Source: a virus
Lineage: Duplodnaviria; Heunggongvirae; Uroviricota; Caudoviricetes
Direction: 5' to 3' (one strand)
Virus record (IMG/VR): IMGVR_UViG_2654587674_000003
Length of the DNA: 64,000 nt
The notes under the pieces were generated by a model that worked only from the letters and a program-made list of their open reading frames with translations, did no database searches and was not told the DNA's origin. Shown piece after piece: positions 39,469 to 56,230 of this stretch. The position numbers were made by a program, and so were the translations under genes. How positions within the stretch are numbered: the stretch's first letter is position 1; the number at the start of each line of letters is the position of its first letter.

Positions 39469-39652
39469 ATTGGCAGCCTCCTTTGACTAAGTTAAGGAGC
39501 TACCGCGTGAGGTTCCAATCTCAATGGCGGTAGCACTGACTGGGTTGGAACTACCGGCGTCAAAGGGAACCGGCCTGCCTTTCGGCAGCCCAGCCAGCAC
39601 TACCATTGATCTCTGAGCTAAACGCTAAGTATGGCTGTGCGATGGCATGACA
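39469..39652 (-). ncRNA. Structured leader upstream of icd; candidate c4-like regulatory RNA region
   Basis: Several stem-loops (GCTACCGC...GCGGTAGC; CTGCC-TTTC-GGCAG) between a terminator and icd; analogy to the P1 immunity-I layout is inference. Confidence 0.3.
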
Positions 39653-39676
39653 CAAAAAAAGACGCGTTCGGCGTCT
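39653..39676 (-). terminator. Intrinsic terminator on minus strand within the icd leader
   Basis: AGACGC-CGAAC-GCGTCT followed by TTTTTTT (minus strand). Confidence 0.55.
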
Positions 39677-39780
39677 GTGTCGCCTTTGACATTATCCGGG
39701 GTTCCAATCCCGGCACCCGTTTTTCTAAGGTGCCGTAGAAATATACCCCACGATAATGCCATGGCGCAACAGTCAGTATT

Positions 39781-39948: not shown

Positions 39949-40269
39949 TTTGACACCCCCAGCGCGAGTAAAGAATGCAGATTATCGCGTGAGTGGTGGA
40001 CGACGAGTGATGGGAAAAGACTGTAGTTGTTCATAGTGTAGTGACTCCTTGCTTTCGGAGCCGCCATTGACTGTTCCACGGTCTGGTGGCGGCGCAATAA
40101 AGGCTGGAACACCGTGAGTCAACGGGGGCTTTTCAGCCACCTATATTGCACCGCCATAGGTATAGCGGCGGCAATAATACGAAAAACTAAACAGTTTGTC
40201 TCAAAAAGTTGACCGGTGTGCCAATCGGTAGTGAATGTACATCGGGGAAATTTACAATTCAACTTAAAA

Positions 40270-40280
40270 TGTTAGAAAAC
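40270..40280. promoter_or_regulatory. Operator-like motif TGTTAGAAAAC (site 3)
   Basis: Family core overlapping the stop of the Ref-like gene. Confidence 0.45.
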
Positions 40281-40858
40281 TAATTTATCAATTCAATCGC
40301 CATCTGATACAACGCCATTTCATCGGCATTGTGCCGTATGAAATCTGCTTTTCCGCCTATTTTTCCATCAGCATGAACAGGGACCAGCCAGGGATATTGT
40401 TCTCGGACCTCGGCTGGCGCTGCGTACTGGTGGTGCCATTTACACAAAGGGAGGACATATTTATGCGCGTTCTCTGCCGTTCTCCCGAAGATATGGTGCA
40501 GGGATACTACTGGGCTATGTTGCCCGTGAATATGGCAGGCAATGCAGGGGAGAGTACCGATAGCGGTCTGTATCCGGCGTTCATCGGCTGTGAGTGATCT
40601 GCCCTTCAGGCCGCGTGACGTGCGTGTTTTTTTGGGCGGAGCGGATACAGCTTTATCTTTTCTCCGCTGTTCATATTGCTTTGCTTTTTCAATTTTCTTT
40701 TGCCGATATTCAGGCGATGCGGCTTTTTCTCTCGCTCGCTGCTGCTGGCGTTGAGCTTGTTGAAGGCGCTTTGCCCTTTGTTCCTCTCGCCAGGCCGGGT
40801 CAGCCAATTTTTGCATGGCTTTTTGTCTCTGTTTCTCCCAATAACTCTGTTTCTGCAT
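40280..40858 (-). CDS. Ref-like HNH-type endonuclease: disordered basic N-terminus + Cys/His-rich C-terminal core
   Basis: 192 aa; K/R/Q-rich first 90 residues; CIACHIHGQH...HHIFGR...CKWHH; operator-like sites upstream. Confidence 0.5.
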   Translation of the reverse strand: MQKQSYWEKQRQKAMQKLADPAWREEQRAKRLQQAQRQQQRAREKAASPEYRQKKIEKAKQYEQRRKDKAVSAPPKKTRTSRGLKGRSLTADERRIQTAIGTLPCIACHIHGQHSPVVSLHHIFGRTAENAHKYVLPLCKWHHQYAAPAEVREQYPWLVPVHADGKIGGKADFIRHNADEMALYQMAIELIN

Positions 40859-40907
40859 GATGGCAGTCTCTTACTTTTCAACGATTTTTCTATGATTGAT
40901 CAAAATG

Positions 40908-40936
40908 GTTAGATATTCAAAATTGATTTTCTAACA
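40908..40936. promoter_or_regulatory. Operator pair GTTAGA-n16-TCTAAC upstream of the Ref-like gene
   Basis: Inverted half-sites with the same spacing as at 28985-29027 and 46161-46188. Confidence 0.5.
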
Positions 40937-40978
40937 TAAAACATTAATATCATTCCTGATAACTGTTTGGAGGACATG

Positions 40979-41131
40979 ATGCTTATAGCTTTAAGTGCGA
41001 TCCACCAGCCATCTGTGAATGAGATTGGCCTGTTCTATGTGTTGGTTTTCGGGGCGTTGGCGCTACTTGAGCTTGGTATTGAGCTTTTCGCAGTGCTTAT
41101 GTTTTGCGTCACGATTCTGGGGAAATTTTGA
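40979..41131 (+). CDS. 50-aa hydrophobic membrane peptide
   Basis: GGAGG 5 nt upstream; stop overlaps the next ATG (TGATG); sequence MLIALSAIHQPSVNEIGLFYVLVFGALALLELGIELFAVLMFCVTILGKF. Confidence 0.35.
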   Translation: MLIALSAIHQPSVNEIGLFYVLVFGALALLELGIELFAVLMFCVTILGKF

Positions 41132-41754
41132 TGGTGAAACGTGTTTTGAAAATTTACATCGCGGGGCCGATGACTGGTTATCCAGATTACAACCGTGCGG
41201 CGTTTAATGCGAAAGCGAGCGAGCTGATGTCTGAAGGGCATATCGTTCTGAATCCAGCTGTGTTACCTGGTGGCCTTTGCCAGAGTGAATACATGGATAT
41301 TTGCCTGGCAATGGTGCGTTCTGCTGATGCGATCTATCTGCTCAATCAATGGGAAGAATCGGTTGGTGCTCGCGCAGAGCACGCGCTGGCTGAAAAGCTG
41401 GGGCTGACTGTAATTTATGAGTCACAAACCAACATTGAATGCCAGGTTGCTCCGCATATTTACCGTGAACTGGTAAATGCGTTACGTGATGTTGCTATTG
41501 AATGTCACGGCACGGATCAGCTTCGCGCCCGCTTAAGCAAAACCCTTTCCAGTTACCTGTCTTTGGCTGAAGGATACAACCTCCGGCAGCGGAGAATGGT
41601 CAAATTAATCACGCGTTTATCTCAATCCCTGGCAAATGCCGAACCAACTAATCCGCTACCTAATGACGCAATGAATTACCTGAAGTCATGCGGCGTTGTT
41701 TCTGAAGATGCAGTTCGTTTTGTGGAGTTTATGTCTCAGAGGATGTCAGCGTGA
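41131..41754 (+). CDS. Nucleoside 2-deoxyribosyltransferase-like (DUF4406-type) protein with C-terminal extension
   Basis: N-terminal KIYIAGPMTGYPDYN pattern; C-terminal motif PHIYRELVNALRDVAIECHGTDQLRARLS shared with the 538-aa protein at 49697. Confidence 0.5.
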   Translation: MVKRVLKIYIAGPMTGYPDYNRAAFNAKASELMSEGHIVLNPAVLPGGLCQSEYMDICLAMVRSADAIYLLNQWEESVGARAEHALAEKLGLTVIYESQTNIECQVAPHIYRELVNALRDVAIECHGTDQLRARLSKTLSSYLSLAEGYNLRQRRMVKLITRLSQSLANAEPTNPLPNDAMNYLKSCGVVSEDAVRFVEFMSQRMSA

Positions 41755-42068
41755 GCTGGCGGGGATGGGGAAGGGCGGAAATCATGATACTCCGCCAGTG
41801 CGCCGGGACTATGACAGTCGTGAGTATTGGGAGGCTGATCGGGCGTACCGGTAGTGCTGTCAGAACCAAAGCGCGGCAACTGCGGATCTGCATGATTCTG
41901 AAAGGAGACTTTCACCCGTCAGCCAAATACCGGCAGGGCGATATAGAACTGGCACGGCAGCTTCATCGGTGTGGTGTTCCCCGCCGTGAGATCGCAGAAA
42001 AACTCGAAATGCCCTTGAGCATGATTAATCAGTACGTTTATTTCGAAAGGAGAGTACATGAAGTCTGA
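41751..42068 (+). CDS. Small DNA-binding protein with two HTH-like segments
   Basis: GTG start overlapping upstream stop; 105 aa. Confidence 0.45.
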   Translation: MSWRGWGRAEIMILRQCAGTMTVVSIGRLIGRTGSAVRTKARQLRICMILKGDFHPSAKYRQGDIELARQLHRCGVPRREIAEKLEMPLSMINQYVYFERRVHEV

Positions 42069-42561
42069 AGGTTTAACGCCAGCACAACTGGCAGAGCGTA
42101 ACGCTGAGTATGTAACGGAAATTTCCCGACTTGAGAAAGAACGCTCGGCGCTGGCGGCGGAGAATGAACTGGCTCGTAAGGCAGTTCAGGCATTCTGCGA
42201 TGTTGTTGGCGACAACACCGAGGTTATCGCTGAGGAGGTTGGGCGAGATGGCGTTCTGGTTATTTTGGAGGCCATGAAGGCAACAGGAAATATGCCAGCC
42301 ACCGATGCTTTCCTGGCTGAAATTCGTGCGGAGGCTCGCAACGAGGGGATTAACTATACCGCAAGCCGTCTTGCTGCTGCTTTCAACCACGGATTTATCA
42401 ATAAGTCTTTACGTGAAGTTTTCGACGTTACACGCATGATTCTGTCAGCGAAAGAAGAGTTGGCTAATGAACCGCACCCGATTGATGGCCTGTCCGGTGA
42501 ATATGCGGAGAAATCCCTTGAAGAATGGGCGGAACAGATTCGCAAAGGAGCTGACAAGTGA
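42058..42561 (+). CDS. Mosaic paralog family member 1 (Ea22-like type), coiled coil + conserved C-terminal module
   Basis: LAAENELARK coiled coil; C-terminal ATDAFLAEIRAEARNEG...AEQIRKGADK. Confidence 0.5.
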   Translation: MKSEGLTPAQLAERNAEYVTEISRLEKERSALAAENELARKAVQAFCDVVGDNTEVIAEEVGRDGVLVILEAMKATGNMPATDAFLAEIRAEARNEGINYTASRLAAAFNHGFINKSLREVFDVTRMILSAKEELANEPHPIDGLSGEYAEKSLEEWAEQIRKGADK

Positions 42562-42968
42562 AGAAGATGATTTTTGTCGCGGCATTGTTGGTGAATATCC
42601 AACAAGTGCATGCTTCAGCAGCTATTGTAGCCTCTACCGCCGCGACTACGGCTGCTGTAGCTGCTGCGAACTCTGCGAATATCGCAAACCAACAGGCACA
42701 GCGTGCTGCTAATGCATCAGCCAGCGTTCACTCAATCACCATTAAGAGCAGTAAGCAAAATCTGGGATTCATAACGTGCGGCACGCGTTCTAATGAAGCT
42801 GTAGGTTCACTTGGATGTACGGTATATGGGGGTAGTGAGAATAGAGAAATTCCATGGAAAACGTGGCCCGGATACGTTCTTGGCTCGAAGCTCCCGGCCA
42901 GTTATGAAGTAAACGCCGTATCGTTTGATCACTATAACGGCGTGGCAACGGTCTATTTTGCATATTGA
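42558..42968 (+). CDS. Small secreted protein (136 aa) with signal peptide and two Cys
   Basis: MKKMIFVAALLVNIQQVHA signal; embedded within the paralog array. Confidence 0.5.
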   Translation: MKKMIFVAALLVNIQQVHASAAIVASTAATTAAVAAANSANIANQQAQRAANASASVHSITIKSSKQNLGFITCGTRSNEAVGSLGCTVYGGSENREIPWKTWPGYVLGSKLPASYEVNAVSFDHYNGVATVYFAY

Positions 42969-49490: not shown

Positions 49491-49700
49491 ATGGCTATTG
49501 CCGCAAGTTACACAATGCATCTCTATTGTGACTGCCGCCAGTGTACGGAAGGTGTATATCCAGTGCCAGACTTCGGTGAGTATATAGGTACGTCATGGGC
49601 TGGCTGTGCAAAAGAGGCGCGCAAGGATGGCTGGCGAATAAGCAAAGACAAAACGCGTGCTTTTGCGCCCGGGCATAAAGTTTTGAGGATTAACAAATGA
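49491..49700 (+). CDS. Cys-rich small protein (69 aa)
   Basis: ATG 49491 with GGAGAG RBS; ATGA overlap with the next gene. Confidence 0.35.
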   Translation: MAIAASYTMHLYCDCRQCTEGVYPVPDFGEYIGTSWAGCAKEARKDGWRISKDKTRAFAPGHKVLRINK

Positions 49701-51313
49701 CCACTATTACCAGAGAACAAGCTCTGAAAATTATTGAGGCAGCCGATGAGGTTATTAGTGCGCTTGCCGGAACTAACGAGGATGTTCACCCTGGTAGCGA
49801 TAACATGCTACGCCTGTGGGATGACCTGAATGACCGTTACGCGCCGCCGGAAGTTGTGCGTGAGCTGGCACGAATTGCACTGGCATCGCTGGAAGCAGAA
49901 CCAGTTAAACGAGTTAACTCAGATCAGATGCGCCGAGTCTGCTTAGAAGCTAATCGCCATTTAGATAAATATGACGCGATGGCGAAAGAGGTAAATAAGT
50001 TGCTTGGACGCATCGCCCCGCCAGCACCGGTAGTGCCTGAAGAAGCAACTCCGGAAAACGTAGAAATGCTCTCTGGCTATGTTTCAACGTACAAATTAAC
50101 CGATAGCGAGCGCGATATTGCTGCCGAAATATGGAACGCCTGCCGCGCCGCCATGCTTCAGTCCGGAAACTTTCGGGAAAACAAGAATTCGTCAACCAAT
50201 AATTTTCGGGAAATCGCGGAAACGTCAACCAGCTATCCGGCAATTCCTAGTGAGGTGTTGTCCGCAATCCTGAAGGTTGCCAGGATTCGTGCCGATTTCG
50301 ATGATTTTGACGGTGACAGGCGAGGTATCGGTGATTGTCTGGATGAGGCCGAGCAAGAGCTTATCGTTACCATTAACAAATATGCCAGTCAGTTGGCAGC
50401 AGAACCGATAGCGGCTAATGACGTTCGAGAGCAGCAGACAGCCGTTCCGCCAGTTCCAGAAATACAGGCTGATGTCGCGCAAGCAATTGAAAATCTCAAG
50501 CAGAAGTTAGTGGAATGCAATCGCTATAACTACTGCGCAGATGCAGTTAAAGGCGTAGAGGATGCCAGCCGCGTCTTGGCACTCCAAAATCAAAATATGT
50601 CAGCACCGGTAACGCCGGAGGCCATTGAAAACGCAATTGAATATATCCGCAGTATCGCTTTTCACATCGATGAAGACGATTACCACGGCAAGCATATTGC
50701 GTATTTCATGCGACAAGCATTGGCCTGGCTGGAAGGGCATTCATGCAGCGACGACAGGCTGGGTAAGGCCGACAATCAACCCGCATCTGGTAACCAGGCT
50801 GCCGAATCCAATCGCGGTAATGAGTGGACCGGCAATCCTGATATTGATAACGCCATCATCATGCTCGACCGCATAGATACGGCGGAAAGTTGCGATGATG
50901 ACCGTATTGAGGCCGTTAAGGCTGTGTTGCGTAGACTGGCAGGCAACTATCCGGATATTCCGGATAGTTCGGTGCCAGCGCCAGGAAAGGGCGTCACCGG
51001 TGAACGTATCCGCATTAAGCCGCATGTTTATCGCGAACTGGTTAACCGTCTCCACGATACAGCGATCAAGTGTGCTGGCACCCAGCAATTACGAGAAAGA
51101 ATTAGCCGTGTTTTGGGCGACGTTATTACACCAGATCATCATAAACAAGCCGAGAAAAGTGGCCTGGAAAGGTGTCGCCTTGAGGCGGCATTAAACATTA
51201 AGCCGGGGCATACGCTTGGCATTATTGATGCACTATTGGTTCATAAGATGGCCAGGGCTTTATTGCCGCTGGTGGCTGAAAAGCATGAGGTGGACCATGC
51301 CAACGAAAGCTGA
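49697..51313 (+). CDS. Large hypothetical protein (538 aa)
   Basis: C-terminal PHVYRELVNRLHDTAIKCAGTQQLRERIS shared with the DUF4406-like protein. Confidence 0.5.
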   Translation: MTTITREQALKIIEAADEVISALAGTNEDVHPGSDNMLRLWDDLNDRYAPPEVVRELARIALASLEAEPVKRVNSDQMRRVCLEANRHLDKYDAMAKEVNKLLGRIAPPAPVVPEEATPENVEMLSGYVSTYKLTDSERDIAAEIWNACRAAMLQSGNFRENKNSSTNNFREIAETSTSYPAIPSEVLSAILKVARIRADFDDFDGDRRGIGDCLDEAEQELIVTINKYASQLAAEPIAANDVREQQTAVPPVPEIQADVAQAIENLKQKLVECNRYNYCADAVKGVEDASRVLALQNQNMSAPVTPEAIENAIEYIRSIAFHIDEDDYHGKHIAYFMRQALAWLEGHSCSDDRLGKADNQPASGNQAAESNRGNEWTGNPDIDNAIIMLDRIDTAESCDDDRIEAVKAVLRRLAGNYPDIPDSSVPAPGKGVTGERIRIKPHVYRELVNRLHDTAIKCAGTQQLRERISRVLGDVITPDHHKQAEKSGLERCRLEAALNIKPGHTLGIIDALLVHKMARALLPLVAEKHEVDHANES

Positions 51314-55735: not shown

Positions 55736-56230
55736 TTATAACTTTTCGTACTGAAGCGGTGAACGCTTAATTTCAAAGTGGCCTTCCGATGTGCTACCAA
55801 AGCCACCAGCACCACGCTCCGTTTCGTTGAGTTCCTCAACCTCGACTAGTGAGACTTGTTCAACACGCTCAAAAATTCCTTGCATGACAGCCATTCCAGG
55901 CTTGAGACAAACGCCTTCCCCGCCTGGATCAGTAATCAGTTTTGCCATGATTTCGCCGCGATAATCGGAGTCGATAATTCCTACGCAGTTAGCCAGGCGA
56001 GTATGTTTTTTGCAGCCCAATCCTGATCGCGGATAGAGTTTCAGACACCAGCCGGGCGGGATCTCCATAGCCAGTCCGGTATACACCCACCAGCTTGAGG
56101 AAATTGCACCATTGCTATCGACGCATGGTTTTATTTCAACAGCCTCAAAATCCATCGCCGCCGATCCGGAGGTGGCATAAGCTGGAAGTTTTGCTGCCGG
56201 ATGTAGGCGTTTCACTTTTACGTAAATCAT
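55736..56230 (-). CDS. dut: dUTP diphosphatase (dUTPase)
   Basis: Motif III GIIDSDYRGE and C-terminal RGxGGFGSTS. Confidence 0.7.
   Translation of the reverse strand: MIYVKVKRLHPAAKLPAYATSGSAAMDFEAVEIKPCVDSNGAISSSWWVYTGLAMEIPPGWCLKLYPRSGLGCKKHTRLANCVGIIDSDYRGEIMAKLITDPGGEGVCLKPGMAVMQGIFERVEQVSLVEVEELNETERGAGGFGSTSEGHFEIKRSPLQYEKL

Follow-up and report, generated by a model that had tools for sequence, protein, structure and literature searches.

Two questions are raised by a pair of short genes near the head of a phage operon. Does the second of them encode an enzyme that acts on nucleotides, and does the membrane peptide encoded by the first work together with it? The genes lie at positions 40979–41754 of IMG/VR virus record IMGVR_UViG_2654587674_000003, a stretch of 64,000 nucleotides that is called the window here. 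Sequence comparison identifies the window as an E. coli phage-plasmid that is D6-like and belongs to the P1 family. The first gene encodes a hydrophobic peptide of 50 residues and the second a protein of 207 residues with a DUF4406 domain (coordinates in Table 1). The original prediction, made from the sequence alone, described a small membrane peptide coupled to a protein resembling nucleoside 2-deoxyribosyltransferase (NDT).

The account preferred here stands at about an even chance of being right. In this account, the DUF4406 protein is a (deoxy)nucleoside 5'-monophosphate ((d)NMP) N-glycosidase or base-exchange enzyme, made from an early operon for lytic replication. The first gene of the operon would make a single-pass membrane peptide of 50 residues, and an overlap of stop and start codons would cause the peptide and DUF4406 genes to be translated in tandem. 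The DUF4406 domain would bind a (deoxy)nucleoside 5'-monophosphate through a Ser-x-Gly motif and a glycine-rich loop. The N-glycosidic bond would then be broken through a covalent Glu–sugar intermediate, ending in hydrolysis or base exchange, and the nucleotide pool would be adjusted or cleaned during lytic replication. A helical add-on at the C-terminus, drawn from modules that recombine among PmgU, EaA and Ea22-like proteins, would probably serve oligomerisation or partner binding. The glycosidase reading is favoured because of three things: the residue pattern, the fusions to dNMP kinase, and the replication and nucleotide genes that surround members of the family. Its models are DNPH1, MilB and DmtZ.

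Family and fold of the DUF4406 protein

The open reading frame (ORF) of the DUF4406 protein encodes 207 residues and ends at position 41754. Residues 7–96 match Pfam DUF4406 (PF14359) over profile positions 2–91 of 91, with E 8.9e-34 and 116.2 bits against a cut-off of 22, so the family had been named correctly from the sequence. The protein matches phrog_355, annotated “nucleoside 2-deoxyribosyltransferase”, at E 4e-43.

AlphaFold2, run with an alignment of 50 sequences, models residues 1–100 as a four-stranded alpha/beta domain with a predicted local distance difference test (pLDDT) score of 83–98. The domain has the fold of the NDT superfamily, which is a Rossmann-like alpha/beta arrangement with a parallel sheet. 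Its top Foldseek match is 2a0k (E 2.5e-4). TIR and SLOG are not its closest structural neighbours; NDT is nearer, and matches to NDT, MilB and DUF1937 outscore TIR. Of these, DUF1937 (PDB 1t1j, a hypothetical protein) is itself uncharacterised and adds no functional information. A direct search of PDB sequences with the protein gave no match (E above 0.7). The profile of the DUF4406 family does match Trypanosoma brucei NDT at E 1e-3, a relationship that only the profile, and not a single sequence, reached.

The family is large. It comprises 25,572 clusters at 50% identity (E up to 0.001) and occurs in 723 phage records, where its genes are often neighbours of replication and nucleotide genes. 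An example is the early-right operon of lambdoid E. coli prophages, in which DUF4406 comes directly after the O/P-like replication genes. Most relatives have 95–120 residues, and in two of them the protein also contains a dNMP kinase domain by fusion (Pfam DNMK, E ~1e-20). An NDT-like fold within a phage accessory block, as originally proposed, agrees with the domain match, the AlphaFold2 model and the early-operon position of the gene.

Active-site residues

Two alignments place the active site. A profile alignment to T. brucei NDT brings the motifs IYIAGP and G-A-x-x-E into line with the enzyme's own motifs. An hhalign alignment to human DNPH1, whose sequence was checked against the PDB, pairs Y9 with Y24, C58 with D80, S77 with S98, G79 with G100 and E83 with E104. 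Though statistically weak, this alignment is consistent. The loop G12-P-M-T-G16 pairs with DNPH1 G27-S-I-R-G31. In DNPH1, Y24, D80 and E104 form the catalytic triad, and the 5'-phosphate is held by S98, a glycine and the backbone amides of the strand-1 loop; MilB keeps the serine as S97 (PMC10603095; PMC3834327).

Conservation was counted over 195 diverse DUF4406 members. The residues of the putative phosphate site are nearly invariant (S77 in 195/195, G79 in 193/195). E83 is present in 191 of the members, within a G-x-x-x-E motif, and its aligned counterparts are the catalytic Glu in T. brucei NDT and E104 in DNPH1. Position 9, where strand 1 ends with the catalytic Tyr, is Tyr in 171 members and Phe in 21. 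The loop G-P-M-T-G is conserved in 182–191 members (G12 in 191, M14 in 187, G16 in 187, with Thr or Ser at position 15). The family also has invariant residues of its own, namely N21, F25, N41-P42-A43 and W74.

The kind of substrate is suggested by the residue that would meet the 5' end of the sugar. NDTs that act on nucleosides bind the 5'-OH through an Asp or Asn, a residue missing from the hydrolases and from the phage enzyme DmtZ (PMC12884076). In the DUF4406 protein this Asp or Asn, expected six residues before the Glu, is absent and Ser77 stands there. Such a replacement speaks for a substrate that carries a phosphate. Aligned with the known enzymes, the Ser-x-Gly motif and the loop correspond to the 5'-phosphate-binding site of the DNPH1/MilB type. 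The position of DNPH1 R30 and MilB R23 is occupied by Thr15.

The third position of the triad, that of the general acid, is the weak point. It is Asp in DNPH1 and NDT and Asn in TbPDT and DmtZ. Among the 195 DUF4406 members, position 58 is Cys in 113 (58%) and Asp in 46. Positions 56 and 58 covary: Asp56 tends to go with Cys58, and most members keep an Asp at one position or the other. Asp56 may thus substitute for the missing third residue. The absence of catalytic residues had been named as what would overturn the original prediction, and it is not what was found, since Y9, E83 and Ser-x-Gly are all present. Because the third residue is Cys, however, enzymatic activity is not to be assumed.

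Comparison with known enzymes

The nearest characterised relatives that act on monophosphates are longer. DNPH1, also called Rcl (2'-deoxynucleoside 5'-phosphate N-hydrolase), and the CMP N-glycosidases MilB and BcmB have 120–160 residues, compared with about 97 in the DUF4406 domain. In DNPH1 a C-terminal helical extension reaches into the active site of the partner subunit (Ser128'), and completes it, which R23 does in MilB; the DUF4406 domain has neither. The catalytic Asp of DNPH1 and MilB is replaced by Cys in the DUF4406 protein.

DmtZ, a dAMP N-glycosidase/deoxyribose-5-phosphate transferase of Z-genome phages, is likewise a phage-encoded member of the NDT superfamily and acts on dNMP (PMC12884076). 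In both proteins uncharged residues replace the Asp that binds the 5'-OH, and both have a conserved Pro after strand 2 (here P42, in 193/195 members). Unlike the DUF4406 domain, DmtZ comes from a different sequence family, has five strands in about 145 residues, and occurs in connection with dutZ/purZ0 and a modified genome. No modified-genome gene is annotated near the locus in D6 or in the closest plasmid.

The classical NDTs (Lactobacillus NDT/PDT and the T. brucei and Leishmania NDTs) have the motifs IYxAGP and G-[AT]-x-x-E in common with DUF4406. They differ in using Asp for the 5'-OH, where DUF4406 has the invariant Ser77, and in having C-terminal residues that complete the active site, which DUF4406 lacks.

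Weighing the readings

Several observations weigh against a (d)NMP glycosidase for lytic replication. Similarity in sequence to enzymes of solved structure is weak (E 1e-3 by profile, 0.03–0.07 by hhalign). By both alignments, the third triad position is Cys58 and not Asp or Asn. The domain ends at about residue 97, short of the C-terminal strand and helix with which NDT and DNPH1 complete the adjoining active site (in DNPH1 through Ser128'). Because this segment is missing, substrate recognition must differ from that of NDT and DNPH1. The fusion to dNMP kinase is rare, with 2 proteins, and a Pfam scan of 40 other long DUF4406 relatives revealed no recognisable partner domain. The three papers found to mention DUF4406 contain no functional work on it, and no published assay of any member was found. 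Finally, a promoter scan of the region returned no sigma-70 site above threshold; by eye, a weak sigma-70 candidate (TTGATT-16-TAATAT, 8/12) can be seen overlapping the operator-like repeat described below.

Some of these points can be read in another way, with the domain as a nucleotide-binding module whose catalysis has been lost or changed. Its role would then be that of a sensor, regulator or sponge, and the helical modules would supply the output. Such a module would explain why Cys replaces the canonical Asp or Asn here and in 58% of relatives, why the site-completing C-terminal segment of NDT and DNPH1 is missing, and why many unrelated extensions without annotation are found attached to the domain. 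But conservation of the Glu (191/195), the Tyr and the Ser (195/195) is typical of an active enzyme. Moreover, active enzymes of the NDT family themselves have either Asp or Asn as the third triad residue, and most DUF4406 members keep an Asp at 56 or 58. A binding module is therefore judged unlikely.

The original prediction had left a choice between manipulation of the nucleotide pool and degradation of signal nucleotides. The pool role is the most reasonable of the two; for the signal role there was no meaningful PADLOC match and no literature. As an anti-defence factor, the DUF4406 protein would destroy or sequester a nucleotide immune signal, such as cyclic oligonucleotides or the signals derived from ADP-ribose in Thoeris. 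The gene does lie in the accessory early operon of a temperate phage, and the protein is small, like many sponge proteins. However, the best PADLOC matches, for defence and anti-defence alike, have E 0.003 and 0.02, and the structural neighbours that score above TIR point elsewhere. The invariant Ser-x-Gly and the Glu fit enzymes acting on a free 5'-monophosphate rather than on a cyclic nucleotide, and the family usually sits among replication and nucleotide genes. The chance that the protein counters defence is accordingly rated as small.

Smaller again is the chance that the pair is a toxic or abortive module, with an NDT-like NAD+ or nucleotide glycohydrolase acting beside a membrane-disrupting peptide. 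Small hydrophobic peptides with charges embedded in the membrane can be toxic, several toxin–antitoxin pairs are present on the element, and NDT-like effectors are known in defence systems, for example in retrons (PMC12405507). Yet there is no PADLOC match, and DUF4406 genes that stand alone are frequent in replication modules of a strictly phage kind. The operator that the operon has in common with the lytic gene ref also suggests expression in the lytic cycle and not in the lysogen. Such a module is thus very improbable.

A bolder form of the glycosidase reading would make DUF4406 a very large phage-borne class of minimal NDT-fold enzymes with distinct chemistry, which in D6-like elements forms a unit with an acidic membrane peptide. 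If this were true, the general acid would be a Cys or a migrating Asp and there would be no lid from a partner subunit. A membrane-tethered dNMP glycosidase or transferase would then reshape or police the pool, or counter nucleotide-based defence, at the onset of the lytic cycle. This is considered improbable.

The membrane peptide

The short ORF ahead of the DUF4406 gene consists of 50 codons and a stop codon, and phrog_8890 matches it from end to end (E 1e-34). Compared with the diverged copy in NZ_CP029365, 34 of the 50 residues are identical, with no insertions or deletions and the same TGATG junction. The two genes differ at 14, 7 and 24 sites in the first, second and third codon positions, and the proportions of nonsynonymous and synonymous differences (pN 0.16, pS 0.72) correspond to a dN/dS of about 0.08. 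Against the more distant copy at locus L029, 29/50 residues are identical and dN/dS is about 0.25. Since values of 0.08–0.25 reflect purifying selection, the small ORF is a real protein-coding gene. Nor is it a known small RNA, because no Rfam family was found within 40860–41760.

The peptide is predicted to be a single-pass membrane helix. From residue 12 up to its end, the Kyte–Doolittle means over 19 residues never fall below 1.6, exceed the usual membrane threshold, and reach a maximum of 2.3. The AlphaFold2 model is a single helix over residues 13–49 with pLDDT 90–98 (model mean 87.5). The hydrophobic ORF that had been noticed from the sequence thus stands as a gene and as a probable membrane peptide. 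A core, LAL-x-ELGIELFA, is unchanged in three diverged versions, and its two Glu residues lie one helical turn apart. The family occurs only in D6-like elements: D6 is the only carrier among 50,697 phage records, 111 plasmids have the peptide, and a large protein collection contains five clusters of it.

Are peptide and enzyme one unit?

The TGA of the peptide gene (41129–41131) and the ATG of the DUF4406 gene (41131–41133) overlap by one base, as the original prediction had pointed out. Its further step, that the two products are coupled, is less secure. Overlaps are usual in this operon, and the pairing is found only in the D6-like lineage.

Peptide and protein may equally well be unrelated neighbours, their overlap being due to tight packing of the operon and to common descent in one lineage. 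The peptide would then have a job of its own, for instance in exclusion, or with a membrane protein of the host as its target. This explanation gains from the difference in distribution, since the peptide family is limited to D6-like elements and DUF4406 spans about 25,000 clusters (50% identity) and 723 phage records. It gains too from the absence of a homologous upstream peptide in all 60 lambdoid loci (0/60), and from overlaps at all six consecutive junctions of the operon. On the other hand, locus L029 keeps the operator, the peptide gene and a TGATG-coupled DUF4406 gene together, although the C-terminal half, the helix-turn-helix (HTH) gene and the Ea22-like genes are missing there. A different hydrophobic ORF of 49 residues also abuts DUF4406 in some lambdoid prophages. 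Whether peptide and enzyme form a functional unit is thus a roughly even matter.

That 49-residue ORF, MPILWFQEVWEKEMWEGLVIVAETVLILWSVIACIFMIYCEWCESRGGH, overlaps the 3' end of a DUF4406 gene of 116 residues (L007 5294–5443; also L074, L077 and L086). It has no sequence kinship with the peptide of the window, and occurs in 3/60 lambdoid loci of the viral-contig sample (L074, L077 and L086).

A family-wide rule that joins DUF4406 to a small membrane ORF was considered and rejected. Over 80 viral loci, the upstream peptide was found only in the D6-like set (L010–L029).

The C-terminal half and its shuffled module

Beyond the DUF4406 domain, the 207-residue protein continues in an all-helical half that is modelled with low confidence (Table 1). 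At L029 the DUF4406 homologue has 97 residues and lacks this half. As most relatives have 95–120 residues, the helical half is best seen as an add-on from shuffled early-protein modules. Used as a query, the C-terminal half found homologues only as fragments from its own lineage, which added nothing independent about it.

One segment of this half recurs in the window, within the 538-residue protein encoded further along. It had been described as the last 35 residues of the DUF4406 protein reappearing at the C-terminus of the larger one. The shared segment is real, but it is 40 residues long and internal in both proteins, with about 60 residues following it. The two copies have 21/40 identical residues (53%; BLASTP E 2e-12), and tblastn against the whole window found no other copy. 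Because only 59/120 positions are identical in the DNA, the homology is old and visible at the protein level, not the result of a recent duplication.

The module consists of two helices. It also occurs in P1 PmgU, P22-like EaA, Klebsiella phage proteins beside primase/helicase and others, in 85 phage records and several PHROGs. The mosaic early proteins of the PmgU and EaA/Ea22 type thus carry the same module among other segments, and differ from the protein studied here in having no DUF4406 domain.

The last ~15 residues differ between two forms of the protein. The 207-residue form (window 41700–41754) ends in …VSEDAVRFVEFMSQRMSA and the 203-residue form (homologues P0022 and P0046) in …VSEDGVLLVRRSSA. 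The sequences suggest either a changed reading frame or a joint left by recombination where the gene meets the HTH gene.

Probable operator and time of expression

The operon diverges from a ref-like gene, and the two have a regulatory region of 120 bp in common. The ref gene of P1 is lytic, and its promoter is covered by a C1 site (PMC4713147). Between the ref-like gene and the peptide gene lies an inverted repeat, which is a perfect palindrome in L002 and L029. By analogy, it is probably a site for a C1-type repressor of the prophage, and the operon is probably repressed by C1 and expressed on induction or in the lytic cycle.

The half-site TTRRTTTTCTAAC (13 nt, with at most 2 mismatches) occurs 12 times in the window, compared with 2.5 expected, and none of 100 shuffled sequences reached 12. 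Nearly all of the half-sites lie between ORFs or just upstream of one, according to the ORF list of the window. They are probably operators of a D6-type C1 repressor, and in that case the set would define the early regulon of the element.

Annotation of the family

DUF4406 is among the commoner unannotated small domains of phage replication and early regions, and the names it bears in databases are inconsistent: deoxyribosyltransferase, hydrolase, MazG-like and dCMP deaminase. The conserved residues fit the monophosphate-acting branch (DNPH1, MilB, DmtZ) and not the nucleoside transferases, which offers a better annotation and a biochemical hypothesis that is cheap to pursue. The gain from this particular locus is modest. 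Both genes are already annotated in many plasmids, as “DUF4406 domain-containing protein” and “hypothetical protein”, and no new mechanism is demonstrated.

Fusions to MazG or to dCMP deaminase were suspected from the names of actinophage records. They were dropped, as the genes are stand-alone DUF4406 genes of 120–126 residues that have been misnamed. For Mycobacterium phage Optimus gp161 (L004 1474–1854) and Arthrobacter phage Andrew gp55 (L005 1480–1842), GenBank gives the names “MazG-like pyrophosphatase” and “deoxycytidylate deaminase”. Both seem mistaken, and inference from gene context could be led astray by them.

The surrounding element

Over the 901 bases around the locus, identity is 90% to orf88/orf89 of the P1-like plasmid prophage D6, an Escherichia phage. 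It is up to 99.3% to non-mobilizable plasmids of about 90 kb from E. coli, Salmonella and Shigella (112 records). By the annotation of D6 and of a RefSeq plasmid, the peptide and DUF4406 genes head a long rightward operon with HTH, Ea22-like, Ppp-like phosphatase, PdcB-like and PmgU-like genes. After the overlap of the peptide and DUF4406 genes, the next five junctions overlap too, by 4 to 11 nt.

Table 1. Coordinates of features in the window.
Feature	Position	Strand	Evidence or remark
Rfam C4 / isrK / C4-like matches	39523–39610, 39655–39733, 40082–40161	-	Rfam
ref-like gene (RecA-dependent nuclease), divergent from the operon	40280..40858	-	Pfam RecA_dep_nuc E 1.3e-34; annotated Ref-like in D6 and RefSeq plasmids
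Operator-like inverted repeat GTTAGATATTCAA-aa-TTGATTTTCTAAC, between ref and peptide gene	40908..40935	.	Arms 13 nt, 85% complementary
Half-sites of putative operators	18043, 28993, 29008, 36874, 40271, 40908, 40923, 46176, 58426, 58514, 61930, 62947	.	Window scan
Shine–Dalgarno GGAGG, 5 nt ahead of ATG at 40979	40969..40973	+	Read from sequence
50-residue hydrophobic peptide gene, MLIALSAIHQPSVNEIGLFYVLVFGALALLELGIELFAVLMFCVTILGKF; predicted single-pass membrane helix	40979..41131	+	phrog_8890, dN/dS, hydropathy, AlphaFold2
DUF4406 domain, residues 1–97, minimal NDT-superfamily fold	41131..41421	+	Pfam, AlphaFold2
Key codons Y9, C58, S77, G79, E83	41155–41157, 41302–41304, 41359–41361, 41365–41367, 41377–41379	+	Residue mapping
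C-terminal all-helical half, residues 98–207, including stop codon	41422..41754	+	pLDDT 44–61
40-residue module, residues 105–144 of 207-residue protein	41443..41562	+	BLASTP, tblastn
Helix-turn-helix DNA-binding protein, gene after DUF4406; GTG start overlaps DUF4406 stop	41751..42068	+	phrog_323 E 3e-24
538-residue mosaic PmgU-like protein with second module copy	49697..51313	+	P1 pmgU matched by module
Second module copy, residues 439–478 of 538-residue protein	51011..51130	+	tblastn E 1e-10

The GTG start of the HTH gene is favoured because its homology reaches upstream of the ATG used by RefSeq in related plasmids. Some lambdoid prophages have homologues with 72–74% identity immediately ahead of DUF4406 (L031 2600–2998, L089 2594–2998, L074 29–199), and therefore the HTH and DUF4406 genes travel together in either order.

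Just past ref, Rfam finds a P1-type C4 antisense RNA (77 bits) and isrK (61 bits), which mark the immI (c4-icd-ant) region beside ref. A third match in the same region is a second C4-like RNA, below threshold at 40 bits.

Three further observations concern the element at large. It carries several toxin–antitoxin pairs, according to the annotation of D6 and plasmids. In the same operon as the DUF4406 gene, an ORF of 136 residues (42558–42968, + strand) begins with a signal-peptide-like segment, MKKMIFVAALLVNIQQVHASAA, and has no Pfam match; it may encode a secreted or envelope protein. The ORF at 55736–56230 (- strand) is a putative dUTPase by synteny and by having the same length as the annotated dut of D6 and NZ_CP032875. 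Separated from the DUF4406 gene by about 15 kb and lying on the opposite strand, it would be a second nucleotide-pool gene of the element.

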